A stretch of 64,000 nucleotides of DNA from a virus. Taxonomy: Duplodnaviria; Caudoviricetes. The stretch lies in IMG/VR virus record IMGVR_UViG_3300034375_009028; one strand, 5' to 3'. Under the pieces are notes generated by a model. The model was not told the origin of the DNA and ran no database searches. It worked only from the letters and a program-made list of their open reading frames with translations. This document shows, one piece after another, positions 7,849-58,417 of this stretch. The translations under genes were made by a program, and so were the position numbers. Numbering within the stretch: position 1 is the stretch's first letter; each line of letters starts with the position of its first letter.

Positions 7849-7856
7849 TATTTATA
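7849..7856 (-). promoter_or_regulatory. T4-type late promoter TATAAATA
   Basis: Exact TATAAATA on the minus strand about 23 nt upstream of the gp25 start. Confidence 0.85.
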
Positions 7857-8861: not shown

Positions 8862-9029
8862 TTAATCAAATAAAGGATCAAGTTCAATAAGTTCAGGGTC
8901 AATGTCTGCACCTGAATAAAATTGCTCAGATAGATCTTGGATGATATCCGAGCAATCGTCGAATGAGAGGTTTTTGTAAATTACTCGACCATTATAGCAT
9001 AAGTTATAACGGCCTTGTGAATTACTCAT
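8862..9029 (-). CDS. Hypothetical protein (likely start MSNSQG)
   Basis: ORF track 8862..9080; the ATG at 9029 overlaps the upstream stop (ATGA). Confidence 0.65.
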   Translation of the reverse strand: MSNSQGRYNLCYNGRVIYKNLSFDDCSDIIQDLSEQFYSGADIDPELIELDPLFD

Positions 9030-9814
9030 CAAATTACGCGAGTCTTTTCGTGTCCAACACGAATACGAGGATCGCACCAAGTCTCAATACCTGCTTCCTT
9101 TGCATCCAGACAGAAGGACACGTCCTCTCCACACATATCCTGAACTGCTCCAGATTCAAAGACTTGCATCTTAGGTGCGAACCAGGGGTACTCAAGACGC
9201 TCAAAGACGCCATGACGAATCATAACCCATCCAAAACCTGTATAATCAACTGTGAATGGTTTACGACGCTTCGAGATGCTCTCCACAGTCTCGTGATTCA
9301 TCACCCCACCATTACGGCGGAAGTCCTCTTCGTCCAACCAGTGGGCAACCGAGGTGGTTTGCCCATCCTCAGTAGCATACCAACCAGCGACAATCTCTCG
9401 CTCATCCTGAGCATTACCGTCTTTATCTGGTCCAGGTACTGCAAGATCGCACAGTTGCCAGAACTTTTGACTATTAAAAACAATGTCATTATCAATCCAA
9501 AGTTGATAATCATACTTCAATTTGCCGTCCCAGGGAATTTGATTGGGTCCGCGCAACACGTTTGCACCAAGACACTTACAACGTGCAAAGTTAACCATCG
9601 ATGAGTAGTCCTGTGAGATTTGGATACTCATGTTGTTTTGTACAAGGTCAAAGCATAGTTGCACAAAACTCTTTAGGAATGTATAAGAACAACCGCGCCC
9701 AGGCAGACAGAACACAATGCTCTTGCCTTGCATACGCTCTTTAATTGCATCATAATCCCAGTCTTCCTTCGGCGCAGTCGGTGCTGCTGCCTTTACAGTA
9801 AATCCTTTTGCCAT
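9029..9814 (-). CDS. Conserved cyanophage GT-A/GT2-like glycosyltransferase
   Basis: MAKGFTVKA N-terminus; DxD-like WIDNDIVF, TGFGWVMI and GEDVSFC motifs of the GT-A fold. Confidence 0.7.
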   Translation of the reverse strand: MAKGFTVKAAAPTAPKEDWDYDAIKERMQGKSIVFCLPGRGCSYTFLKSFVQLCFDLVQNNMSIQISQDYSSMVNFARCKCLGANVLRGPNQIPWDGKLKYDYQLWIDNDIVFNSQKFWQLCDLAVPGPDKDGNAQDEREIVAGWYATEDGQTTSVAHWLDEEDFRRNGGVMNHETVESISKRRKPFTVDYTGFGWVMIRHGVFERLEYPWFAPKMQVFESGAVQDMCGEDVSFCLDAKEAGIETWCDPRIRVGHEKTRVI

Positions 9815-9862
9815 TTTAGAATAATTCTCTCAGATCAATTTTAACAGTTTATATGTAGCAAG

Positions 9863-10030
9863 TCAATATGAAGATTCTGCCACCATGTCCTTATTTATCT
9901 CTAGTTTCTCATACTCATAATTCTCATCATCAAGATTGTCCCACTTCTCACGGAATTCTTCTTCAGTTAATACTGCATATAAACATTGATTCCTTTTGTT
10001 ATAAATGTGATAAACTGTCTGTGATTCCAT
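9863..10030 (-). CDS. Hypothetical protein (likely start MESQTVYHIY)
   Basis: ORF track 9863..10081, trimmed to the ATG after the upstream gene. Confidence 0.6.
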   Translation of the reverse strand: MESQTVYHIYNKRNQCLYAVLTEEEFREKWDNLDDENYEYEKLEINKDMVAESSY

Positions 10031-10040
10031 ACAAAATTCA

Positions 10041-10184
10041 TTATCGGAACGTATTATATATGACCATAATGAGAATTCCAATGCTAACTAAAAAACCCTT
10101 CGGGTGCTTCGCAATCCAATATGTAAAGATTACTCTCCACATGTTCCAATAAGGTCTTCGGCGGCGCATCATAAAAATTCTCAT
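10041..10184 (-). CDS. Small membrane protein (47 aa)
   Basis: Hand translation MRIFMMRRRRPYWNMWRVIFTYWIAKHPKGFLVSIGILIMVIYNTFR; TGC-TATAAT extended -10 immediately upstream (about 10192-10200). Confidence 0.65.
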   Translation of the reverse strand: MRIFMMRRRRPYWNMWRVIFTYWIAKHPKGFLVSIGILIMVIYNTFR

Positions 10185-10387
10185 TGATTCTATTATAGCA
10201 CCTTTTTACCCGAAAAATTTTCTGCGAGATTTTTTTATATACCTTATAACACACACTCGAATTGTCACCTCTGTAGGTTAGAGGGACCCGCTCATTATAA
10301 ACGCAGGGGGCCGCATTAGTATAACTTATCGATCGAATTAACTGCCATAAGGAATGCTGATCAATGAAATGTGTCCGCACGAACAAT

Positions 10388-10415
10388 AAAAAACCCCCGC
10401 ACGAATGCAGGGGTT
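10388..10415 (-). terminator. Intrinsic terminator
   Basis: Minus strand AACCCCTGC-ATTCGT-GCGGGGGTT followed by a T-run. Confidence 0.7.
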
Positions 10416-10431
10416 AAGTATACCTAACTCA

Positions 10432-10519
10432 CGGGTCGCTGGGTATAAAGAACTCAGCGACTCTAAGTGTTGCTCTCACGCATAAAAGGGTCGCTGAGTT
10501 CTTTATACCCAGCGACCCG
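10432..10519. repeat. Perfect 30-bp inverted repeat with self-complementary arms
   Basis: CGGGTCGCTGGGTATAAAGAACTCAGCGAC (10432-10461) is the exact reverse complement of 10490-10519; 28-nt spacer. Confidence 0.95.
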
Positions 10520-10530
10520 CTAAATGTAAC

Positions 10531-10788
10531 TTAGTGTGCCATTACGATGTAACGGAAGAATGTACCTTCTGCCAATTCTTCATCACTAGCGTCACAAATA
10601 GCAGTCCACGCAGGAACACTATTCGGACAATATACATCAACAGAATCTACAACGTCATCAGGAATAGCGTCAATTGTTGCTCCAAACCGCGCCCATAGTG
10701 TGCGGTTGCTAAGATCAAAATCGAACGATTCATCAATCGCAGCAATCCAATCGGTTTCAGATTGCAGTTCGGAGATGGTAAGTGCCAT
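10531..10788 (-). CDS. Hypothetical early protein
   Basis: ORF track, 85 aa, acidic. Confidence 0.7.
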   Translation of the reverse strand: MALTISELQSETDWIAAIDESFDFDLSNRTLWARFGATIDAIPDDVVDSVDVYCPNSVPAWTAICDASDEELAEGTFFRYIVMAH

Positions 10789-10843
10789 GAGAATTGAAAG
10801 AATCAGGGTGTGAGATAAGGGGGACGATTGTCCCCCGATTGTT

Positions 10844-10978
10844 CTATTCTTCGGGACCGAAAGCGCACTCTAGAGAGTACATTTCCAGTTCCTGATCATC
10901 ATCATAAACTGCCTGCCAATCCTCATCAGTGGGAGTGTAGATTTCTTCAATCTGCTGCTGATCAGTGAAAGGATTCAT
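10844..10978 (-). CDS. Small acidic hypothetical protein (44 aa)
   Basis: Hand translation MNPFTDQQQIEEIYTPTDEDWQAVYDDDQELEMYSLECAFGPEE; TATCAT -10 upstream. Confidence 0.65.
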   Translation of the reverse strand: MNPFTDQQQIEEIYTPTDEDWQAVYDDDQELEMYSLECAFGPEE

Positions 10979-11050
10979 GGGGTTGTCTGTGTGGGACTTG
11001 ATCATGATAGCGACTAGGGGGGCACCCCGTAGGGTGCCCGTTACCTTTGT

Positions 11051-11332
11051 TCACACTACAGCGGCGGCGATCAGATCACGCTTGCGACGGGTGGAGGGCA
11101 TGGAAAACCAGAGGTCCCGCTTGCCAGTTTTCTGATTTCGGGTTGCTGCCAGTTGCCCACGGGTTTCCAGATCCACCAGCACGGCGTGGATGGTGCCCTT
11201 GTGGCGCTTAGGATCAAGACCCATGGCGCGAACTAGGTCGGTGCCTGTCATCGGACCTTTCTTGATCAGGATGCTGCGGGCAGCGATGCGGATCGCGGTG
11301 TGGAAGCAACGGTCGATTGCGGTGATGATCAT
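11051..11332 (-). CDS. Winged helix-turn-helix DNA-binding protein
   Basis: ILIKKGPMTGTDLVRAMGL..KGTIHAVLVDLETRGQL...DLWF has the helix-helix-recognition helix-wing pattern. Confidence 0.6.
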   Translation of the reverse strand: MIITAIDRCFHTAIRIAARSILIKKGPMTGTDLVRAMGLDPKRHKGTIHAVLVDLETRGQLAATRNQKTGKRDLWFSMPSTRRKRDLIAAAVV

Positions 11333-11382
11333 GGTCTGGGTTGGGTTGTGCGGGTGTGTCCCGCGTGATCTAATGATAACGC

Positions 11383-11547
11383 CTAGAGGGTCACCTGCCA
11401 GGTCGTCGGAGCGGGTTTGTCACAATCTGAAATAATGAAAAGTTGTGAGAGAAAGTGTTGCCATTCAGCATCAGTCATCACCACACAATTCTTTTCATCA
11501 AGTTCGCGTTGTGCGCGTTCGGAAAGTTTCAAGCGGAGATCTTTCAT
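11383..11547 (-). CDS. Small hypothetical protein (54 aa)
   Basis: Hand translation MKDLRLKLSERAQRELDEKNCVVMTDAEWQHFLSQLF... Confidence 0.5.
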   Translation of the reverse strand: MKDLRLKLSERAQRELDEKNCVVMTDAEWQHFLSQLFIISDCDKPAPTTWQVTL

Positions 11548-11557
11548 TGTTCTGATG

Positions 11558-11719
11558 TCAGTTTTTTGTGGACTTGAAAGTTACAACCTCAGCAGGAGAT
11601 CCGCAGGAGCGATAGAAATCAACCATACGGTTTGCCTCATCAATAGTGGCAAATGTTTGCTCTCTCCACTCACAAGAATTGTAGGGAGTTTGGTAGCGAA
11701 TAGTGATGCCGATTGCCAT
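11558..11719 (-). CDS. Conserved cyanophage small protein (53 aa)
   Basis: Hand translation MAIGITIRYQTPYNSCEWREQTFATIDEANRMVDFYRSCGSPAEVV. Confidence 0.7.
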   Translation of the reverse strand: MAIGITIRYQTPYNSCEWREQTFATIDEANRMVDFYRSCGSPAEVVTFKSTKN

Positions 11720-11770
11720 GATGTTAAGGTGAAGAATGGGAGGGGGATTGCTCCCCCTAAGTGTTTCAAA

Positions 11771-12016
11771 TCAGGCGGTGATTTCCATCCACTTGATCGG
11801 TTGAATAGTTCCCATTTTCCAGATGGTAACTTTTCTCCCGTGCAGTTCTACACTCCAATCGAATGCAGCATCCCTGGCAGAATCGAAATCAGAAAACATT
11901 TCGATCATTGCCTCGTTAAAGTTGAAATCAGGACCGATTGCCCACATGATGCTCGTTTGGGTTGTGCGAGGTCCGTTGCCTCGCTTGAATGTATATTTGC
12001 ACCGATCGGGGTGCAT
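11771..12016 (-). CDS. Hypothetical early protein
   Basis: ORF track; DSARDAAFDWSVELHG pattern; true start may be downstream. Confidence 0.6.
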   Translation of the reverse strand: MHPDRCKYTFKRGNGPRTTQTSIMWAIGPDFNFNEAMIEMFSDFDSARDAAFDWSVELHGRKVTIWKMGTIQPIKWMEITA

Positions 12017-12024
12017 TTCAAGCG

Positions 12025-12222
12025 TTAGTGTGCGCTTTGCCGATTGGCACGTACCTTTGCAATTGTTTTCTTTATGTTTGCAATTGCGCGATGATCGCTG
12101 ATAGTTTTGGCGGTGACAATTTGCACACCGTCAGCATCACGCCAAACATAATGTTTCTTCTCACGGACTAGTTCAAATCCGCAGGATTTCATGTACTCTT
12201 TTAGAATGTTTTTGGTTTTCAT
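12025..12222 (-). CDS. HicA-like (dsRBD-fold) mRNA interferase, no HicB partner
   Basis: GFELVREKKHYVWRDADGVQIVTAKTISDHRAIANIKK matches the HicA pattern G(F/W)xxxRxxxxH...(T)PSD.RA..N. Confidence 0.6.
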   Translation of the reverse strand: MKTKNILKEYMKSCGFELVREKKHYVWRDADGVQIVTAKTISDHRAIANIKKTIAKVRANRQSAH

Positions 12223-12257
12223 GATAAAGAATGGGGGGCAATCGCCCCCCTGTTAGG

Positions 12258-12872
12258 TTAGATCAAACCCTTGTGAATGCGACGGTATGCAACCCATGTG
12301 ATCGCTTGAATTTGCGATGCTAGGTGTACCTTACCTGTCACCTCAGAGATTAACTTAGCAGCGTCACGGTAAGCATCTTGAATCTTACCGAAAGTCTTGT
12401 CTGACATAGCAGGAACCGCTTTCAGGTTAGAAACACTGCCGTTCCAAACATTGTAGGCGTGACCATCAATGCAAGGCGTGTCACTTTTACCATCAGTGGC
12501 AATACAGAGAAAAAATGCGATAGTTTTGTTGCCACGCAATACTTTCACAATTTGCTCCCTTTTAAGTTGCAAATCAAGAATCATGATCGCCTTATCTTTG
12601 TTTGCAGAGTAACTACAAACAGAGACAGAATTGTAGGGGATTTCATATGCCCAGGCACGCAACATTGCCTCAGCATCCTCTACATTTCTTTCCCACTTAT
12701 TGTTTGGGGAAAGTGCAGCGATCACACCTGCCACGATGTCAGAATCGACACCATACTTTTCGCCAAGGTCAACACAAACGCCATAGGCGTTGCTGTACCA
12801 TTGCAGACCTATTTGGCGATCGAGAGTGTTGCTCTGGAAATACATCGCAACGATCGAATCAGTGTGTGCCAT
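12258..12872 (-). CDS. Phage protein with HhH-GPD/EndoIII glycosylase-like features
   Basis: GLQWY..A, VIAALSPNNKWERN, LRGNKTIAFF and CIDGHAYNVW (cf. glycosylase VDxH), QIQAITWV; widespread phage family. Confidence 0.55.
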   Translation of the reverse strand: MAHTDSIVAMYFQSNTLDRQIGLQWYSNAYGVCVDLGEKYGVDSDIVAGVIAALSPNNKWERNVEDAEAMLRAWAYEIPYNSVSVCSYSANKDKAIMILDLQLKREQIVKVLRGNKTIAFFLCIATDGKSDTPCIDGHAYNVWNGSVSNLKAVPAMSDKTFGKIQDAYRDAAKLISEVTGKVHLASQIQAITWVAYRRIHKGLI

Positions 12873-12898
12873 GTCGTGAAATGAATTTCGACCCTCAA

Positions 12899-12927
12899 AG
12901 TATTGCAGCGATCCGCTGCAAAGTCAA
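12899..12927 (-). promoter_or_regulatory. Sigma70-type early promoter with a palindromic spacer
   Basis: TTGACT-17 nt-AATACT; the spacer region is TTGCAGCG-GAT-CGCTGCAA. Confidence 0.75.
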
Positions 12928-12984
12928 CAGGTTTTAGATCAGCAACGCTTATCAGTGACATCAGAAATACTTATAGCCCAGGGG

Positions 12985-13014
12985 TTGACTTTAGGGGCAC
13001 ACTGCCCCTACGCT
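12985..13014 (+). promoter_or_regulatory. Candidate plus-strand (antisense) sigma70 promoter
   Basis: TTGACT-18 nt-TACGCT; the spacer contains TAGGGGCA-CAC-TGCCCCTA. Confidence 0.45.
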
Positions 13015-13051
13015 AGAGGGCGGGAGGGGTGGGAAGCACAATAAAAAATAT

Positions 13052-13080
13052 AAAAAAATACCACGCCGAAGGCGTGGTAT
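13052..13080 (-). terminator. Intrinsic terminator
   Basis: ATACCACGCC-TTC-GGCGTGGTAT plus a T-run on the minus strand, downstream of the 13139 gene. Confidence 0.85.
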
Positions 13081-13138
13081 GATACAACCCACTTACTTAC
13101 AAATCAATCACACAAACTATACAATAGGCATTCTCCGT

Positions 13139-13327
13139 TTAGTTTAACATCCAATGGGGGTCATTGTTGACATTAACCCAGAAGAAGTTGCGATTGTTTG
13201 CACTTCTTAAGAATAGCATGTCGCCTTTAACCTGTTCAATGATACAGGTTCCGTCACATCCCATTAGATTAGCAAAACGGTTTTTTGCTTTGCTAGATTT
13301 TGGCGTGACGGTTGCCAGGGTGTCCAT
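13139..13327 (-). CDS. Conserved cyanophage hypothetical protein (paralogue of 37766..37960)
   Basis: VTPKSSKAKNRFANLM...LFLRSANNRNFFWV..NDPHW. Confidence 0.75.
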   Translation of the reverse strand: MDTLATVTPKSSKAKNRFANLMGCDGTCIIEQVKGDMLFLRSANNRNFFWVNVNNDPHWMLN

Positions 13328-13500
13328 CAGAATTCAATTGGTTGATCTGTTGGTTGAATTGTAGCACACTTTGTCATGTACTTATGAATCTTCTGATCCA
13401 TTGATGGAGTCTCCTCAGAAGTAAGATTCTCAAGAATCCAGAGGATCTCAGAACCAGTTTGACCTTTCTTCAAAAGAGTAGTCATCATTTCAGTAGACAT
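13327..13500 (-). CDS. Small hypothetical protein (57 aa)
   Basis: Hand translation MSTEMMTTLLKKGQTGSEILWILENL...; TGATG overlap with the next gene. Confidence 0.65.
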   Translation of the reverse strand: MSTEMMTTLLKKGQTGSEILWILENLTSEETPSMDQKIHKYMTKCATIQPTDQPIEF

Positions 13501-13549
13501 AATTGAATCCTTAGATGACGTGAATTTAGTCGAGATTAATTGATTGATA

Positions 13550-13585
13550 CTCGACGAGATAATTTGATGATTACCTCGTCGAGAT
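13550..13585. repeat. Two CTCG(T/A)CGAG palindrome copies
   Basis: CTCGACGAGAT at 13550 and CTCGTCGAGAT at 13575; same core as at 14891 and 16437-16518. Confidence 0.85.
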
Positions 13586-13594
13586 TTTCTACAC

Positions 13595-13855
13595 TCAGGC
13601 AGTCACGATTTGCAGAGTGCCATCCTTGATCTGGCAGTTGATGAAGGAACCAACGCTCTCACCCAGGCGGATCACCTCATTGGCATCCTGTTGGAAGCGA
13701 GCAGGATCCTGCACAGTGTAGTTGTAATTGCGTCCGCCCTTAAAGGTCACGGTCACGTTACCATCATCCATGATGCTCAGGGCATCAAGGGCAGAGGAGG
13801 TGAAGGTGGAGACTTCCAGAGCGGTAGGAGCAACAGGGGTAGCAGTCATGATCAT
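13595..13855 (-). CDS. KTSC-domain-like protein
   Basis: SSALDALSI...VTVTFKGGRNYNY...ESVGSFINCQIK matches the KTSC pattern (SS.I....L.V.F..G..Y.Y...S.G.Y.N..IK). Confidence 0.6.
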   Translation of the reverse strand: MIMTATPVAPTALEVSTFTSSALDALSIMDDGNVTVTFKGGRNYNYTVQDPARFQQDANEVIRLGESVGSFINCQIKDGTLQIVTA

Positions 13856-13963
13856 AAAAAAATAAAGGTTTGAGTGAAGTGTTTTGAGCGGGATGCTTCA
13901 CCCCCGCTGATGCAATCAGTATAGCATGGACTGGTTGGGGGGTGGAACCCCCCTTGTGCCAGT

Positions 13964-14215
13964 TTAGAGATCGGTCAGCATCTCATCCAGGGCAGCGGTG
14001 TCGATGGTGGGATCCATCCAGCGAGCACCATCAGGAGTCATCTGACCCCACATGATTTCCAGACGGGGAATCAGGGAGTCGTAGGAGTCATAACGCTGAG
14101 CGACCCGATAGGTTTCGTAGTCGTTCTGAATCCAGAGGGACACGTTCCAGGTTGCCCAGTTCTTCCAACCGTTGAAGTCGGTGCGCTCAGGGATCAGAGA
14201 AGTGAGGCGGTCCAT
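13964..14215 (-). CDS. Conserved phage protein (NGWxNxxTWNV family)
   Basis: FNGWKNWATWNVSLWIQND; preceded by the TTGACT-17-TATTGT promoter. Confidence 0.75.
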   Translation of the reverse strand: MDRLTSLIPERTDFNGWKNWATWNVSLWIQNDYETYRVAQRYDSYDSLIPRLEIMWGQMTPDGARWMDPTIDTAALDEMLTDL

Positions 14216-14237
14216 GTGTTTGTTTGAACTGAGGTCA

Positions 14238-14266
14238 CAATAGGACGGATGGGGGGCAGAGTCAAC
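14238..14266 (-). promoter_or_regulatory. Sigma70-type early promoter
   Basis: GGGG-TTGACT-CTGCCCCCCATCCGTCC-TATTGT (17-nt spacer). Confidence 0.75.
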
Positions 14267-14277
14267 CCCCTGACTGA

Positions 14278-14460
14278 TTAGTTTTCCTGATCCTCCAACA
14301 GTTCAGGATAATAATCTTTAATCTCAGTGATTAGTTCTTCTTGAGTGTAATCAGTGAGATTTTCTACCAATGTGTCATAAACAAAACATTCCATTGTTTT
14401 CATGTCCATGCTATCCAGCAGTTGCTGAGCATAGGAATGAATCAGATCTTCTTTGTTCAT
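14278..14460 (-). CDS. Hypothetical protein
   Basis: ORF track, 60 aa (YAQQLLDSMDMKTM...YYPELLE). Confidence 0.7.
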   Translation of the reverse strand: MNKEDLIHSYAQQLLDSMDMKTMECFVYDTLVENLTDYTQEELITEIKDYYPELLEDQEN

Positions 14461-14461
14461 G

Positions 14462-14662
14462 TCAGAATGAGAGGTAGGGATGATCAGAGTCTAACTCCTG
14501 ATTGGTGTCGGATGCGGTGAGAAGTGTTGTGATGGGATAATACTCATCAGCATCTGGATCATACACCATAGGAGTGCAGTCTAGTTGCTCTGCTGTCATA
14601 GACTGTAACATGATCAAAAGATCTTTGTAAGTCTGACAACCGTAGGGTGCATTAGGTGTCAT
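14462..14662 (-). CDS. Hypothetical protein (likely start MTPNAPYG)
   Basis: ORF track trimmed to the ATGA overlap with the upstream gene. Confidence 0.65.
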   Translation of the reverse strand: MTPNAPYGCQTYKDLLIMLQSMTAEQLDCTPMVYDPDADEYYPITTLLTASDTNQELDSDHPYLSF

Positions 14663-14874
14663 TTGAGAATAATGCGATAATCTACAGATTTGACGCACCA
14701 TCCTGATGCAGTGCTGATCTCATCCATGAGATCTTCTTCATCATCAGCATCCCAGAATTGACCGACATAAACATCACTAAGACGTTCTTCTGTCATGATC
14801 TGATCTGATTCTGACCAATCATCCTCACAATCGAGAGAACAATCGAATTGAATTGAAGTGATTTGATACTTCAT
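14659..14874 (-). CDS. Hypothetical acidic protein (likely start MKYQITSIQFD)
   Basis: ORF track trimmed to the ATGA overlap. Confidence 0.7.
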   Translation of the reverse strand: MKYQITSIQFDCSLDCEDDWSESDQIMTEERLSDVYVGQFWDADDEEDLMDEISTASGWCVKSVDYRIILK

Positions 14875-15005
14875 GATACTTGCGTGCGCGTCTCGTCGAG
14901 ATTTTCTGAACAAAGAAATTCTAGCATGTAGTAATCTACCGTGACTTCTTTCGCCGCGGCCAATTCCTCAAGAGCAGAGTCAAATGCAGCGTCAAGTTCG
15001 TTCAT
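14871..15005 (-). CDS. Small hypothetical protein (44 aa)
   Basis: Hand translation MNELDAAFDSALEELAAAKEVTVDYYMLEFL... Confidence 0.65.
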   Translation of the reverse strand: MNELDAAFDSALEELAAAKEVTVDYYMLEFLCSENLDETRTQVS

Positions 15006-15073
15006 TGGAGTGGTGTGAACTGAAGTAATTATTGCACCCCCCAGGTGGTTCTGGGGGGATTGGTGGACAGTGC

Positions 15074-15595
15074 TCAGACCGTCACAAGAGATCCTTTGCC
15101 AACAGTCAGTGGTTCCTCTGTAAGGAAGTCATACTCAGCGGTGTTAGTGTCACCCCATCCCAACTTCCAACACTGCCAACCATCACCAGGAGTGAACAGA
15201 TAGCACCACTCTTCTCCACAATTACCACTGAGGAAGTCATCGAAGTCGCCAATCTTAGGGGGAGCATCCTCACCTCGCTCACTGTAATACAGGGGCGAAG
15301 GTGTTGCTTTCACTGGAGAATAGACCCAGTTGTCATCAGCATCACGCATGTAATCGACGGTCTTTGTACCATCAGCATGGTGAATTGTTTGCTTCAACGG
15401 TGCAGATTCCCACATGTGGGTAGAGTGAAGCGAGGACATATCGCCACCGTTGATGAGTTCTTCTACCTGTTCTTTATAAAGGTAGTTGTCAATTAGTTTG
15501 CGACCAGTATACTGAATGTAACCGTCATAATGACAGTAAACACTGATGATCTGATCAGGACCGAGGGCAAGACCGATGCGAGAGCGAGTTCCCAT
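15074..15595 (-). CDS. Conserved phage protein (MGTRSRIG..SVYCHYDGY family)
   Basis: The ATG at 15595 gives the family-typical N-terminus; TACACT -10 with hairpin upstream. Confidence 0.8.
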   Translation of the reverse strand: MGTRSRIGLALGPDQIISVYCHYDGYIQYTGRKLIDNYLYKEQVEELINGGDMSSLHSTHMWESAPLKQTIHHADGTKTVDYMRDADDNWVYSPVKATPSPLYYSERGEDAPPKIGDFDDFLSGNCGEEWCYLFTPGDGWQCWKLGWGDTNTAEYDFLTEEPLTVGKGSLVTV

Positions 15596-15663
15596 GGGTT
15601 GTGAGTGGGGTGAACTGGAATCAGTGTAGCAGATTTGGGGGTGGTGTCCACCCCCTGAGGGAA

Positions 15664-15837
15664 TCAGTAGCGAGAATCCTCCAAGGTCTCCTTGAAGACC
15701 TGACTGACCTCCTCCCAGTGGTAGTCCTTCAGAGGACCGCACTGGTCTTCCATCCAATCATACACCATGCACCAGTCGGCGTCCATTTCTAGGACGAACT
15801 GAGGCAGGGACTGGAGAGCGGACTTAAAAGTGGTCAT
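15664..15837 (-). CDS. Hypothetical protein (paralogue of 18553..18819)
   Basis: MTTFKSALQSLPQFVLEMDADWCMVYDWMEDQC; TTGCCA-17-TAATAT promoter at about 15861-15889. Confidence 0.7.
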   Translation of the reverse strand: MTTFKSALQSLPQFVLEMDADWCMVYDWMEDQCGPLKDYHWEEVSQVFKETLEDSRY

Positions 15838-16132
15838 GACCCGTTGGGTGAACTGCACAAATATTACCAACCCCTCCAACCCCTGGCAACCGCTTCCGAA
15901 CCACCTCACAGACTGTCACAGGCACCTCTCACAGCGTTTTAAAAGTCGTTATAATCTATGGACAATCAGCACCAACGGCAGTGGGGTAACTGCCTGATCA
16001 ATGCATCGTCACTCAACTTGCAATATTTTTTTATAAAAAACATTAAGAAAAAACCCATTAATGTGTGCCATCCCACAAACACACACTAATGGGTTATTAT
16101 AATATGTTAAGAAGTAGTTATGGTGTACCCAC

Positions 16133-16306
16133 TCACCAATTCGTAGCGTCTAGTTCTTCAACATATGCACTCACGGTCTCATCACCCTCCAGTTGGAACA
16201 CGTCATCATAATTGATTTGATGAGCATCAAAATCGTCACGAACTTCGAATTCTAAAGTAACACGAACTTTGCGCTTTTGTGCTGCGTGGTAAACTGAAGA
16301 TGCCAT
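16133..16306 (-). CDS. Conserved cyanophage small protein (57 aa)
   Basis: Hand translation MASSVYHAAQKRKVRVTLEFEVRDDFDAHQINYDDVFQLEGDETVSAYVEEL. Confidence 0.75.
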   Translation of the reverse strand: MASSVYHAAQKRKVRVTLEFEVRDDFDAHQINYDDVFQLEGDETVSAYVEELDATNW

Positions 16307-16330
16307 GAGAACCTTTGTGCGAACAGTGAT

Positions 16331-16359
16331 ATTATACTATGAGATTTAATATCCGTCAA
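16331..16359 (-). promoter_or_regulatory. Strong sigma70-type promoter
   Basis: TTGACG-17 nt-TATAAT. Confidence 0.85.
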
Positions 16360-16408
16360 CGCATGAACGTGACAATCACGATGATATTTAGAATGTTATA
16401 ATGATCTT

Positions 16409-16520
16409 ATGATTGATATTATGATGATTCGCACACATCTCGTCGAGATTTATATGATTGATATATGATTGATGACGCACATCTCGTCGAGATTGTCAAG
16501 TGCGCGTCTCGTCGAGATTT
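16409..16520. repeat. Iteron-like tandem repeats with ATCTCGTCGAGAT palindromes
   Basis: Copies at 16437, 16481 and 16507; the first two sit in ~45-bp direct repeats starting ATGATTGATA. Confidence 0.9.
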
Positions 16521-16553
16521 GTGAGACCCCTCATATATTTTTCTTCGCGGTTC

Positions 16554-16582
16554 TTGTATTTTTTTCGCGGTTGTGCTATAAT
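16554..16582 (+). promoter_or_regulatory. Plus-strand sigma70 promoter with extended -10
   Basis: TTGTAT-17 nt-TATAAT with TGC before the -10; no plus-strand ORF downstream. Confidence 0.7.
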
Positions 16583-16654
16583 ACGCGGTCCAAGATCACA
16601 AGGATCTAGAGGATCTAGAAGATTTATAAGAGATTTTAGATCATATTTATAACA

Positions 16655-16705
16655 TTATCCACAGTAATTCATACCTTTTCCACAGAATACGCAGAGTTTT
16701 CCACA
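16655..16705 (+). promoter_or_regulatory. Three DnaA-box consensus sites at 21-bp spacing
   Basis: TTATCCACA (16655), TTTTCCACA (16676), TTTTCCACA (16697), each followed by G; all fit TT(A/T)TNCACA. Confidence 0.75.
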
Positions 16706-16818
16706 GTATGTCAGCAAAAGAACAAACAACACATATACATTTATTTTAACATTTATAAGTTAAAAAAGCATTAAAAACAGGTAATTTCAGGTTAAATCTG
16801 CATATTATCAAATAGAAT

Positions 16819-17013
16819 TTAAAATCCCTTATTCTTCTTACTCACTGGTTCAATCACTTCAATATGACTTAACCATTTTGACTCAGTAATAAACCAATGA
16901 TTCTGAGTATCCTCCCAGTTATCAAAAACAACTTTTTTTCCATTCTGATGAATTACCACATAATGATGGCGATCATACGGAAGATGACTTGTTTGCTCAA
17001 ATACTTTAGTCAT
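16819..17013 (-). CDS. Conserved cyanophage hypothetical protein
   Basis: ORF track; PYDRHHY...FDNWED....WF pattern. Confidence 0.7.
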   Translation of the reverse strand: MTKVFEQTSHLPYDRHHYVVIHQNGKKVVFDNWEDTQNHWFITESKWLSHIEVIEPVSKKNKGF

Positions 17014-19083: not shown

Positions 19084-19358
19084 AGTGACAATGATGCCCA
19101 ACGATCAATGTTACTATTATAATACACATTGATGACATCTGTCACACATTGGTTACATTCTGAATCACTAAATCCCCATTCACGATGATTCTCATACAAA
19201 TAATTGTATGCATACTTCTGTGCAATGATGGGATTGTCGTGGCGATTCAAAATACACAACAAACGTGTATTCACACGATCAATCACTTTGTCAGGAGTGT
19301 CAGTGTAACACTCCCACTCACTGCGCTTGATGACCAGTTGCTTCTCAGATACAATCAT
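19080..19358 (-). CDS. Hypothetical protein
   Basis: ORF track, 92 aa. Confidence 0.65.
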   Translation of the reverse strand: MIVSEKQLVIKRSEWECYTDTPDKVIDRVNTRLLCILNRHDNPIIAQKYAYNYLYENHREWGFSDSECNQCVTDVINVYYNSNIDRWASLSL

Positions 19359-50620: not shown

Positions 50621-50699
50621 ACTACTAAATCCGTTTTTAATATTTAGTTTTGTAGGAGGGCGCTCCCATATAAGAAAGACCTTTAATATTCCCCCCAAG

Positions 50700-50783
50700 T
50701 GCGAGTAGGGAGACTTGAACTCCCACGGGATTACTCCCAACAGATTTTAAGTCTGGTGCGTCTACCGATTCCGCCATACTCGC
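50700..50783 (-). tRNA. trnL: tRNA-Leu (UAA), no encoded CCA
   Basis: GCGAGTA/TACTCGC acceptor stem, CT-TAA-AA anticodon loop, long variable arm, GTTCAAGTC T-loop. Confidence 0.92.
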
Positions 50784-50787
50784 ATTT

Positions 50788-50862
50788 TGGTAGGACTGGA
50801 GGGAATTGAACCCTCTTCACACCGTTATAAGCAGTGGGCCTTAACCAATAGGCGACAGTCCC
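50788..50862 (-). tRNA. trnI: tRNA-Ile (UAU) with encoded CCA
   Basis: GGGACTG/CAGTCCT acceptor stem, CACTG-CT-TAT-AA-CGGTG anticodon arm, GGTTCAATTCC, ACCA end. Confidence 0.9.
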
Positions 50863-50865
50863 GTT

Positions 50866-50953
50866 TGGTAGGAGTAGGGAGACTTGAACTCCCACGGGCG
50901 TAATGCCCAACAGATTTTAAGTCTGGTGTGTCTACCGATTCCACCATACTCCC
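50866..50953 (-). tRNA. trnL: tRNA-Leu (UAA) with encoded CCA
   Basis: GGGAGTA/TACTCCT acceptor stem, same anticodon arm as 50700..50783, ACCA end. Confidence 0.93.
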
Positions 50954-57400: not shown

Positions 57401-58417
57401 GGTGTTTGTATCTACATCAGTAAATAAAGCATTAACACCATAAACATTATTCCAAGTATTAATATTAGAACCCAAATCATATGTGGATGCTACTGAAGGT
57501 ATAAAATTACTTTGTATATTAGACTGAAATTCTACATTATTATTAAATGTTGCAATACCAGATACAAAAATATTCCCTTCTAATAAAGCGTCTCCTCTAA
57601 GATCAAAGGTTTGTCTTGGAGTTGAAGTACCCACACCAACCCTTTCAGTCAGTGGATTATAGTAAAAAGTCTCTGCACTAACTACAGTTCCTGTTGCGCT
57701 CTTATACTGAACACCATAAACTGGGCCCACACTAAAGAAGCTTAGTTCATCATTGGGTAACCACTCAACCCCACCAAAAGTATTAGAAACTAGAACACTT
57801 GGTTCGGCAGTTCCATTATTATTATAATAATCATATATTGTTCCAGTCAATCTCATATCCCCATTAATATGGAGAGTTCTTTCTGGTTGTGTTGTTGCTA
57901 TTCCAACTCTTGCATCATCAAGTGCTGTTATAATAGTTCCACCAGCACCTACTTTTAATTCTGCTTCTATAGTTAAAAGGGGATCTAATGGATCAAACGT
58001 GAATCCAGAAGAAGTTGCAAAATCACCATTATTTTTAAATAGAACTTCAGTATCATTACCTGGGGGAGATACTGTAATTGTAGATATATTACTAAAATTC
58101 TCTGCTGTTGCTACAATAGAATTTCCTTTAAAGTTTAATCTAGTAATACTATTACCAGTACCTACAATAAAATTTTCATCAAATATACTCAAACCAATTG
58201 AGTTAAATCCGATGGGAGGAACCTGCCAATATCTATCATAGGTATCCCCATCATCAAAAGTAACCAATTGATAATAATTTGGTTTTAATGGCAAAGTTTT
58301 TTCTGTAGGAAACCCAAGATTTGGTTCCGCTTCTTCGATTCTTAATTGTCTATATCTACCAGTACTAAGACCAGAGAATCTGGCAATTCTTTGTCTTCCA
58401 GATATATGCTTTGCCAT
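51446..58417 (-). CDS. Giant repeat-containing tail fibre with C-terminal S74 chaperone
   Basis: 2323 aa, G/T/S/N/V-rich; 11 copies of a VD(A/T)KGR(I/V) repeat; SDARLKDNV...GVIAQEVE...KEQQ at the C-terminus. Confidence 0.85.
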   Translation of the reverse strand: MAKHISGRQRIARFSGLSTGRYRQLRIEEAEPNLGFPTEKTLPLKPNYYQLVTFDDGDTYDRYWQVPPIGFNSIGLSIFDENFIVGTGNSITRLNFKGNSIVATAENFSNISTITVSPPGNDTEVLFKNNGDFATSSGFTFDPLDPLLTIEAELKVGAGGTIITALDDARVGIATTQPERTLHINGDMRLTGTIYDYYNNNGTAEPSVLVSNTFGGVEWLPNDELSFFSVGPVYGVQYKSATGTVVSAETFYYNPLTERVGVGTSTPRQTFDLRGDALLEGNIFVSGIATFNNNVEFQSNIQSNFIPSVASTYDLGSNINTWNNVYGVNALFTDVDTNTLDINGIVTLSGITSIQGALVPSLDNNYDLGKDSIRWNTIHATNATFYGDVGFGTDNNKIVEFNSKINSDIIPKSPGQFDLGNALLKWDVVYANTIDGVSLKADTLKTVTDITNVNRFLTFVDSNNPTTALNPYESYYTNNNLYYNPGSQTIFLPNTIITGVTTFRGNVLIGDDINDTVNILSKIDTNLIPTGDASRDIGATGSQWATVYGISFTGNSNTATQLETAREFSISGDAVASSVLFDGTANVGLALTLNNTGVTPNTYGSSTNVPQITVDAKGRITTAVNVGIDFANATVAQANRVLSQSTSNAAYFYPSFLDSNNDTPDFEQLYTNAFLAYQPSTGNFGIGKSEPAAKLHVSGEPRFDIMTTFQDEGSIRFDRQDTTSRPFYIRTYNDSAPGGNYMGFDVHNGTTNQASRVLTLRGDGNVGINSIDPTDRFFVGGTSRVTGNATFEGDISIRGAFIDSTFDSGGNGQVLLSTITGTNWTDQDQLAAGTANQIRTQRRSDNATHYITFVDSDNSPAQYENLYTADGASDGGITFNPSTGEVNIISPDSIPLVLERKNTGVSAIEYKNSSGSMWAGLVNFADWWAIDGDSDLSNDPYLIVNRTDGKVGIGTTVIDSSSIVTIAGTVTPSIPGTYTLGTSALKWNTVWAETLDGDLVGNADSATKLETAREFSLANDLTSPVVSFDGTANVILNANLVNTGVTSAIYGNPISIPIITVDAKGRITNVSTTEVSRADSLTTSRNFSLANDLTSPAVGFNGTDDVILNANLVNTGVTSGSYGNSTQIPTFSVDAKGRITSAVDVAIDFSEANVATADSLKNARDFSLANDLTSPTVSFDGTDNVILNANLVNSGVTSASYGSATIVPVFDVDAKGRITNVVNTNINFGESQVARADSLTTSRNFSLANDLTSPIVSFNGTDDVVLNGNLVTTGVTSDTYGTSTAIPQFSVDAKGRITSAINVAIDFGTASVATANSLSVARNFSIIGDVDAPSVSFDGTDNVQLVATLDNTGVTSATYGSQTEIPVFDVDAKGRILSVTNTLVNFAESQVAKADSLTTSRNFSLANDLTSPIVSFNGTDDVVLNGNLVNTGVTSDTYGSSTQIPVFDVDAKGRITGVTETLLDVTQAQVAFADALTTSRSFSLGNDLTSPVVSFNGTGDVVLQGNLVTSGVTSATYGSSTQVPVFDVDAKGRITGVTDTLIDFGTATVNNADNIRTQSIATDASFNITFVDGNNAASPAVYEALYTDSGITYNPSKDTLILSNTDARQKDEAAIWLNGISGALLLDNVGQKRLSWNDGGGNLTLRSGSYYNSGGDKYVLANDGAAKITLTSDGSSGLVDIQVAGQGANANDAVAYTQGVRLDSNNDAFRPLSNNALDLGTSSAKWATVYATTFSGQITGNADTATALETARNFSLGNDLTSPTVSFDGTGPVVLQGNLVTTGVTSATYGTTSKVAQISVDAKGRITSAQELDINFSAATVAFADALTNAQNFSLGNDLTSPTVSFDGTGPVVLNGSLTNTGVTSASYGSSTQIPTFSVDAKGRITGVTAVGVNFGTATVAQADKVKVTTESTGTTERYLCFTDGGGGNYQDIKVDTGLRWNPSGDDLICYGDLVAGRNNRGVALTINDGYGNANITFNHKDGLAEDPTNTGQTGNSARIVCNTDDLSNPVYLDFYLKTGASAVTAGQLTSIMRINESGVRPSADSTFDLGTNTIRWNHIYADNITATNISAPITGNADSATKLQTARNFSVSGDVSTASPVSFDGTADVNLAVSLPTFAGLAAGNYGSATEIPTITVDTKGRVTAVSVNTFTPSNSQTSDALLTQLTTTNATFYPTFVNSNNAAPGTAESYFTNVNYTINPSTGNLNVGGSVTANSDARLKDNVKQIDNALDKVLSLRGVEYDRNDLEDNPHQIGVIAQEVEKVFPELVNGQGDEIKSVAYGNFAGVFIEAFKEQQKTIEEQNAKIDLLTKQVEALMEKLGG
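53770..55420 (-). repeat. Seven tandem ~237-bp (79-aa) coding repeats
   Basis: Unit ADSLTTSRNFSLANDLTSP.VSF.GT..V.L...LV.TGVTS..YG....IP.F.VDAKGRIT; boundaries approximate. Confidence 0.85.

Follow-up and report, generated by a model that had tools for sequence, protein, structure and literature searches.

Why does a T4-like phage carry, in a gap between two of its small genes, a phased row of sequences that look like the DnaA boxes of a cyanobacterial host? The question is raised by a stretch of 64,000 nt (IMG/VR record IMGVR_UViG_3300034375_009028; here called the window), which is part of an uncultured, divergent T4-like cyanomyovirus with almost all of its genes on the - strand. The gp6 baseplate protein encoded in the window is about 52% identical to gp6 of the Prochlorococcus phage P-TIM68 and the Synechococcus phage S-SM2, and DNA of the window phage is found in many freshwater metagenomes. 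The sequences in question lie in a region that the initial annotation had described as free of open reading frames (ORFs), and this holds: a 512-bp gap (16307-16818) without a supported gene separates genes for proteins of 57 and 64 amino acids (aa), the + strand frames within it (46 and 50 aa, 16469-16652) have no support, and the flanking genes are all on the - strand. The annotation had proposed either a phage origin opened by host DnaA or a datA-like sink for that protein. Here the gap is found to contain a short cassette of promoter, iteron-like repeat, boxes and AT-rich block, the best candidate found for a replication origin or a host-DnaA-sensing switch. We know of no T4-like cyanophage for which an origin of replication has been mapped, nor of a precedent in T4 biology for reliance on the DnaA of the host. 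The literature searched had nothing pertinent on origins or DnaA boxes of cyanophages or T4-like phages, and the bare 9-mer, looked for in full texts, turned up only in unrelated lists of primers.

All three boxes are present at the positions given in the initial annotation, 16655 (TTATCCACAG), 16676 (TTTTCCACAG) and 16697 (TTTTCCACAG), occupying 16655-16706 on the + strand in one orientation with a start-to-start spacing of 21 bp, and all are directed at the AT-rich block. The 10-mer TTWTCCACAG occurs four times in the 64-kb window, with 0.36 expected, and the observed box count was reached in none of 100 shuffles. The looser TTWTNCACA (consensus from PMC4674748) occurs five times against 12.4 expected; since three of these five fall within 51 bp in the gap, boxes are scarce elsewhere and concentrated here. 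Outside the cassette, about 64 kb contain just two further TTWTNCACA sites, against an expectation of about 12 for the window as a whole; this under-representation may reflect avoidance of stray boxes.

Compared as 9-mers with TTWTNCACA and the cyanobacterial TTTTCCACA, all three boxes are exact matches, one TTATCCACA and two TTTTCCACA. The latter serves as DnaA box in the cyanobacterial oriC, and DnaA domain IV shifts it in vitro (PMC4674748). Box flanks in the cassette family read G-box-GG, as they do around the E. coli high-affinity box oligonucleotide GTTATCCACAGGG (PMC4674748), and the match to a DnaA high-affinity site extends over 10-12 nt. Phased pairs of TTTTCCACAG in bacterial genomes are mostly cyanobacterial (about 53 of the 80 listed), and their commonest near neighbours are dnaN (16 loci, median distance 277 bp) and dnaA (15 loci). 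The exact 9-mers together with the flanks support the earlier description of these boxes as cyanobacterial, that is, of host type. A search for DnaA domain IV (PF08299) in phages S-SM2, P-TIM68, Syn9, S-PM2 and P-SSM2 found none, and the domain is present in 143 of 151 sampled cyanobacterial genomes. Because no DnaA-like domain was found in the phages, binding by host DnaA is the likely reading, and to judge from the sequence host DnaA probably does bind these boxes. T4 itself has five dispersed boxes and no cluster.

The other parts of the cassette are arranged around the boxes in a fixed order. Its promoter (16554-16582, + strand) consists of a -35 element TTGTAT (3/6 positions), a 17-nt spacer and an extended -10 element TGcTATAAT, and points away from all neighbouring genes. 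It was read directly from the sequence; a simple promoter scan missed it, because the weak -35 element leaves it under the threshold. The corresponding promoter in relatives is TTGACA-N17-TGnTAnnnT followed by a GC-rich discriminator. Downstream of it are a conserved start, AAGATCAC, and the first iteron-like unit (together 16592-16631, + strand), which in the window contains a 9-bp duplication, with AGGATCTAG present twice. The GATC and GATT motifs listed in the initial annotation (16594, 16603, 16612, 16621 and 16639) are indeed in the sequence; as an origin feature they do not stand. The nearest relative, G001, is 99% identical and lacks one AGGATCTAG, and its single unit, AAGATCACAAGAATCTAGAAGATTTATAAG, is the canonical first unit of the family. 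Since G001 lacks the array and matches the family consensus, the tandem 9-bp repeat is a recent duplication private to one strain and not a conserved element, and a SeqA/Dam-type origin role for it was rejected.

The AT-rich block (16725-16824) has a core, CACATATACATTTA, at 16730-16743 and a second element, ACATTTATAA, at 16749-16758, and is a candidate unwinding element. The AT-rich tract pointed out earlier was borne out here: positions 16724-16823 are 81% AT and rank among the least stable 1% of 100-bp windows. Its core is conserved in S-SM2, P-TIM68 and the contigs L099, L325, L338 and L359; the family core is CATATACATTTA followed by A- and T-runs. In the basal unwinding system, a DnaA box, a spacer no longer than 16 bp, three or more NAN trios and AT-rich DNA follow one another (PMC8287927). 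In the window, box 3 is followed by a spacer of 6-7 nt, the seven NAN trios CAG CAA AAG AAC AAA CAA CAC and then the AT-rich block; the stretch is A-rich, which makes such a pattern cheap, and none of the seven trios matches GAT/TAG. An exact T4-type late promoter octamer, TATAAATA (16644-16651, - strand), directly adjoins box 1 and faces the 57-aa gene; the same octamer is found at 7849-7856, 22 nt upstream of gp25. A late-promoter-like sequence, TATAAATG (16750-16757, - strand), lies inside the AT-rich block.

Because the intergenic region had no blastn match among 50,697 phage records, relatives were sought by motif and by neighbouring proteins. Scanning IMG/VR for two boxes 21 bp apart gave more than 116 contigs, about 28 of them from T4-like cyanophages in which the boxes keep to one side of gp6, gp25 and a conserved gene encoding 261 aa (9029-9814 in the window). 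For a census independent of the boxes, IMG/VR was searched with the promoter plus AAGATCAC, and a unit-motif filter left 69 distinct cassettes. A second, unbiased sample consisted of 80 relatives (L292-L371) chosen by the neighbouring 261-aa protein, 59 loci of which were scored. Conservation at the syntenic place in related cyanomyoviruses, which the initial annotation had named as a check, is seen in IMG/VR contigs and in four isolates: S-SM2 (boxes at 58064 and 58085, the two in the cassette out of four in its 190 kb), P-TIM68 (58194 and 58208), Syn9 (52565 and 52589) and S-PM2 (19231, 19244 and 19256). Every isolate cluster is situated 2-8 kb upstream of gp25/gp6, as are those of the about 28 contigs; the cassette is complete, and single-copy, in S-SM2 and P-TIM68. 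As a minor point, tRNA features in the S-PM2 RefSeq record (NC_006820, 17.4-19.4 kb) overlie protein-coding genes and the box cluster; the coordinates of tRNA-Asn (19177-19249) and tRNA-Leu (19252-19333) look unreliable.

The window, S-SM2, P-TIM68 and dozens of contigs share one layout: a sigma70-type promoter directed against the genes, a GC-rich discriminator, the invariant AAGATCAC, the units, the boxes and the AT-rich block. There are one to four iteron-like units of about 35-40 nt per cassette in relatives, and 67 of the 69 cassettes have precisely 11 nt between AAGATCAC and (a)CATTTA. Most relatives have an A-run and a GC hairpin past the AT-rich block, forming a terminator for transcripts in the gene direction. 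Among the 50 cassettes with at least 300 nt of downstream sequence, exact boxes are present in 24, of which 19 have two or more, where our composition-based estimate of chance expectation is about 0.02 boxes per 800 bp. In the sample chosen by the 261-aa protein, exact boxes are eightfold denser upstream than downstream (0.113 vs 0.014 per kb). Boxes are therefore a frequent but optional component, carried by only part of the cassettes and loci.

Where boxes occur, their geometry is regular. Those in the same orientation are spaced at 11-12, 21-22, 42-43 or 53-55 bp (41 clusters), so that helical spacing extends to the relatives, with the proviso that the 21-bp class, unlike the others, is inflated by how the first set was collected; both orientations occur. 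Downstream arrays read ++, +++, ++- or +-, with the leading boxes aimed at the AT-rich block, and 10 of 58 cassettes have arrays upstream of the promoter, in patterns such as ++++-. In 22 of the 27 cassettes that have boxes, the start of the most AT-rich 50 bp lies between -7 and +28 bp relative to the last box; over 56 cassettes this maximum starts at a median of +105 and is 85% AT, compared with 72% upstream of the promoter. Homologous box arrays are found in S-SM2, L368, L382, L391, L444, L445 and others, and across many lineages the spacers between boxes have diverged while the boxes recur at the syntenic site.

Tentatively, and at somewhat less than an even chance, we read the cassette as an early replication origin with host DnaA as an optional helper. 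This reading is favoured because the layout matches that of T4 origins and, in addition, resembles iteron plasmids and the R-loop origin of pBR322. The sigma70-type promoter would be fired by host RNA polymerase counter to the flow of the genes, and transcription would cross the one to four units and enter the easily opened AT-rich block about 100 bp downstream. Host DnaA, stacked on one face of the DNA and aimed at the block, would help to open it; alternatively, DnaA might stall the polymerase and keep the RNA annealed. The phage helicase loader and helicase would then load, with the RNA priming synthesis. From DnaA binding through unwinding and R-loop formation or priming to a replication start at this place, these are steps that we infer from the arrangement of the parts. 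The boxes would be an optional accessory, as DnaA boxes aid iteron plasmids and pBR322, because about half of the cassettes lack them. A narrower version, which we regard as rather doubtful, is that of a single conserved promoter-driven origin for which about half of the lineages recruited host DnaA via oriC-type boxes set against the unwinding element.

The T4 origins provide the closest comparison. oriF and oriG combine a promoter with an AT-rich unwinding element within about 100 bp, where an R-loop of the transcript serves for priming; at oriE, an early promoter is accompanied by direct repeats, evenly spaced 12-mers (PMC3016281). The cassette, too, is part of a T4-type genome, has mainly late genes around it and stands at a local switch in transcription direction, and its promoter (16554-16582) is followed at about 100 bp by the AT-rich block (16725-16824) as in oriF and oriG. 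Like oriE it has an early-type promoter, for unmodified host polymerase, with adjacent direct repeats. The repeats themselves differ from the oriE 12-mers, with units of about 35-40 nt in one to four copies (in the window, one unit with the private 9-bp duplication), and the cassette has no sequence similarity to the T4 origins. T4 origins, unlike the cassette, have no DnaA boxes, and oriF and oriG use MotA middle promoters, whereas no MotA-dependent middle-mode promoter was found in the cassette, its promoter being plain sigma70 (TTGACA-N17-TGnTAnnnT). Positional homology to oriF was considered and rejected: oriF directly follows gene 25 and sits where uvsY starts, and the cassette is kilobases upstream of gp25.

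DnaA-assisted iteron origins include RK2 oriV, P1 oriR and those of pSC101 and F, and the R-loop origin of pBR322 has a DnaA box. The cassette resembles these in its direct repeats, consensus boxes and AT-rich region, in the GC-rich hairpin of many relatives, and, as proposed here, in having DnaA as a helper rather than sole initiator. It differs from iteron origins in that its units are longer and fewer, the boxes are optional, it has its own promoter and no Rep-type initiator has been identified. With the cyanobacterial oriC (dnaN-linked TTTTCCACA arrays; PMC4674748, PMC8287927) it shares the 9-mer and its flanks and direct boxes at 11- or 21-bp phasing directed at an AT-rich stretch; a formal resemblance, in A-rich sequence, is the order of box, short spacer and NAN triplets in the window. 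Against this, the window cassette has only three boxes and triplets unlike the GAT consensus, is set between phage promoters without a skew switch, and has small phage genes as neighbours; linkage to dnaN or dnaA was not found.

Several observations weigh against an origin, or against DnaA as its opener. About half of the cassettes are without an exact box, P-SSM2 and P-SSM4 have no box cluster, and an exact cluster was found upstream in only 8 of the 59 loci scored in the sample chosen by the 261-aa protein; because so many lack boxes, DnaA is not the obligatory opener of this element. In eight cassettes the slot of the boxes is taken by a palindrome. Other DNA in the window is less stable still than the AT-rich block. 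The cores of the units read TATAAAT(G), like late promoters, on the gene strand, and for this reason the units may be promoters of the 57-aa gene, so that their conservation may in part be that of late promoters. The conserved neighbour is a small acidic protein that nothing marks as DNA-binding, and no cognate initiator has been identified. Contigs from RNA libraries together cover 16203-16932 (low-depth spans 16203-16720, 16530-16823, 16599-16932 and 16660-16905), but these are metatranscriptome contigs, which give no strand or ends and could include carried-over DNA. The cumulative GC skew, proposed in the initial annotation as a check, rises monotonically along the complete genome of S-SM2, with no inflection at the cassette, and has none within the window; since nearly all genes share one strand, GC skew is uninformative here. 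The original suggestion of an origin opened by host DnaA thus stands in its host-type boxes, synteny, phasing and AT-rich block, and is weakened by the box-less cassettes and the private GATC duplication; as an origin, the element is a candidate.

The main alternative, to which we give a somewhat smaller chance than to the origin, is that the cassette serves transcription control only, as a hub of divergent and convergent promoters at which no replication starts. The slot would be occupied by DnaA, or the palindrome by another protein, and either would act as a roadblock, repressor or activator, setting the level or 3' end of a rightward noncoding RNA or gating the late promoter, and expression would track the DnaA status of the host. 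In E. coli, DnaA-box complexes block RNA polymerase in the regulation of asnC and dnaA, which counts in favour of such a role. The most conserved parts of the cassette are in fact the promoters and the transcript 5' end (AAGATCAC-N11-CATTTA, 67 of 69), and box 1 of the window abuts a perfect late promoter. The position of the boxes, in transcribed DNA after the promoter and before the upstream gene, is one at which a roadblock would prevent antisense read-through. The slot contains boxes in 29 cassettes, the 16-bp palindrome GATACGAATTCGTATC or variants of it in 8, both in none and neither in 23; that boxes and palindrome never occur together is as expected for interchangeable DNA-binding regulators. 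The palindrome or its variants were recorded in the slot at L315, L332, L352, L354, L408, L413, L469, L470 and L475. L014, L055, L087 and L097, from another cyanomyovirus lineage, have phased boxes over the ribosome-binding region of a small gene.

Control of transcription leaves unexplained, on the other hand, the regular abutment of boxes and AT-rich block, the helical phasing and the direction of the boxes, and the large upstream arrays of four to six boxes (L011 type) go beyond what a simple operator needs. Little in the rightward RNA, moreover, points to a purpose of its own. No conserved small ORF was found in it, the window having only a 13-codon frame that is absent in S-SM2. Rfam 15 at gathering score identified only three tRNAs in the window, and between 16250 and 16900 at E up to 1 only a chance-level match (E = 0.72). 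Its folding is slightly better than that of shuffles (z = -2.4 and -2.1 for the two strands), owing to a long-range AT-rich inverted repeat and the GATC palindromes, and is not decisive.

Less probable by far is a reader other than DnaA, either a phage DNA-binding protein that mimics its specificity or a motif acting within a noncoding RNA. The boxes do sit in a transcribed stretch, and phage cassettes often evolve private operators, of which the palindrome variants and the ATCTCG-N-CGAGAT sites described below would be examples. Such a reader would have to account for a match of 10-12 nt, flanks included, to the high-affinity DnaA site and for the use of the identical word in the cyanobacterial oriC, and no homologue of DnaA domain IV was found in the five phage genomes searched. 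That both orientations are found, and that some boxes precede the promoter and so fall outside the transcribed part, argues for a reading at the level of DNA and excludes a purely RNA motif.

The datA-like sink, the second proposal of the initial annotation, fits poorly, and we think it very improbable. Multiplying phage genomes would soak up host DnaA and shut off host initiation, for which the cassette offers high-affinity consensus boxes with optimal flanks, a copy number that may reach hundreds per cell during infection and the lack of a phage DnaA-like protein to compete for the boxes. E. coli datA and other DnaA-titrating loci have multiple boxes and an IHF site that promotes hydrolysis of DnaA-ATP. 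The cassette resembles datA in being a cluster of high-affinity boxes outside the chromosomal origin; it differs in having few boxes and a position fixed relative to promoter and AT-rich block, and no site matching the IHF consensus WATCAANNNNTTR was found within 16300-16900. Most genomes have just two or three boxes, many relatives have none, and the boxes are confined to one slot between promoter and AT-rich block, neither spread nor amplified. Titration would act late, after early replication, and T4-like cyanophages already degrade host DNA. A chance cluster without function, conceivable for a short motif in an AT-rich genome, is effectively refuted by the shuffles, none of 100 of which reached the observed count, and by syntenic recurrence across lineages despite diverged spacers.

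If the cassette does work as an early origin with host DnaA as helper, the T4 superfamily would have its first origin assisted by DnaA, and an origin would be defined for the first time in cyanomyoviruses, a group of T4-like cyanophages that are among the most abundant viruses of oceans and lakes. The start of phage replication would then be coupled to the status of host DnaA and hence to light, growth and cell-cycle state, and the divergently encoded 57-aa protein would belong to the same device. More generally, if DnaA acts here at all, replication or early/late switching would be wired to host replication licensing, which could help to explain the dependence of cyanophage DNA replication on light and host state. 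Even if only regulatory, the cassette would be a widespread, apparently undescribed noncoding element with a conserved small-protein partner. It is short and recognisable and gives experimenters an exact place to look, with syntenic clusters in the cultured phages S-SM2, P-TIM68, Syn9 and S-PM2.

The partner is the 57-aa early gene (PHROG 12516; 16136-16306, - strand), a homologue of which stands beside 53 of the 69 cassettes, always on the opposite strand. Its sigma70-type promoter, TTGACG-N17-TATAAT (16331-16359, - strand), agrees with the consensus at 11 of 12 positions and has a conserved counterpart in the family alignment. The family consensus, from the window and 53 related loci (alignments A2 and A3), is MSVxYxQAQKxRYRITLELEV..DFDPHQIDWEKLF.LEG.E.V..YVEDLS.P..W, an acidic protein. 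Comparisons with Pfam, a PDB fold search and Atlas gave no family, fold match or named relative; the AF2 model is confident, with a pLDDT of 80. Most of the gene (16129-16297) is covered by an RNA-library contig at a depth of 211, and in one metatranscriptome the family is abundant. From its ATG to AAGATCAC the distance is 165-170 bp in most copies, a spacer that holds the early promoter of the gene and the late promoter TATAAATA of typical cassettes. In the window it is 285 bp, because three private copies of the 13-bp palindrome ATCTCG-N-CGAGAT sit in it (16437-16518), between the divergent promoters.

This palindrome, repeat family D1, is an insertion specific to the window phage and absent from the 165-170-bp spacer of typical cassettes. 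Its sites in the window are at 13574, 14891, 16438, 16482 and 16507 (seven hits on both strands vs 0.11 expected), two of the five inside a GC-rich island, and from its sequence it looks like the putative operator of a dimeric regulator. On the other side, the cassette starts past the stop codon of its 64-aa upstream neighbour (DUF7441, PHROG 897; 16819-17013, - strand).

The GC-rich island (about 9000-16500) has 43-48% GC, compared with 28-37% elsewhere in the window, and extends as far as the cassette. Many IMG/VR cyanophage proteins share 82-92% identity with the product of its 261-aa gene, and the adjoining gp6 only about 50% with any isolate, which suggests that the island is a recently exchanged block bordered by the cassette. 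In 49 of the 80 loci (L292-L371) the contig breaks off less than 2.5 kb upstream of the 261-aa gene, vs 10 of 80 downstream, and several (L303, L306, L313 and L323) end inside the cassette. Cassette and island together are an assembly-break hotspot in metagenomes, so the cassette marks the border of a hypervariable island where assemblies habitually break. Elsewhere in the window there is a cluster of three tRNA genes, Leu-TAA, Ile-TAT and Leu-TAA (50699-50953, - strand).

Boxes were also seen in other settings. At L014 (8820-8860), a pair of boxes with 21-bp spacing sits right on the ribosome-binding region of a gene for 72 aa; boxes of this type are co-oriented with the genes, with a strong promoter about 190 bp upstream. 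Among the other viral contigs of the scan (about 85 within L003-L118, with 23-67% GC), most have two to eight consensus boxes with G...GG flanks, and arrays of DnaA boxes appear to be common in uncultured phage and prophage sequence.

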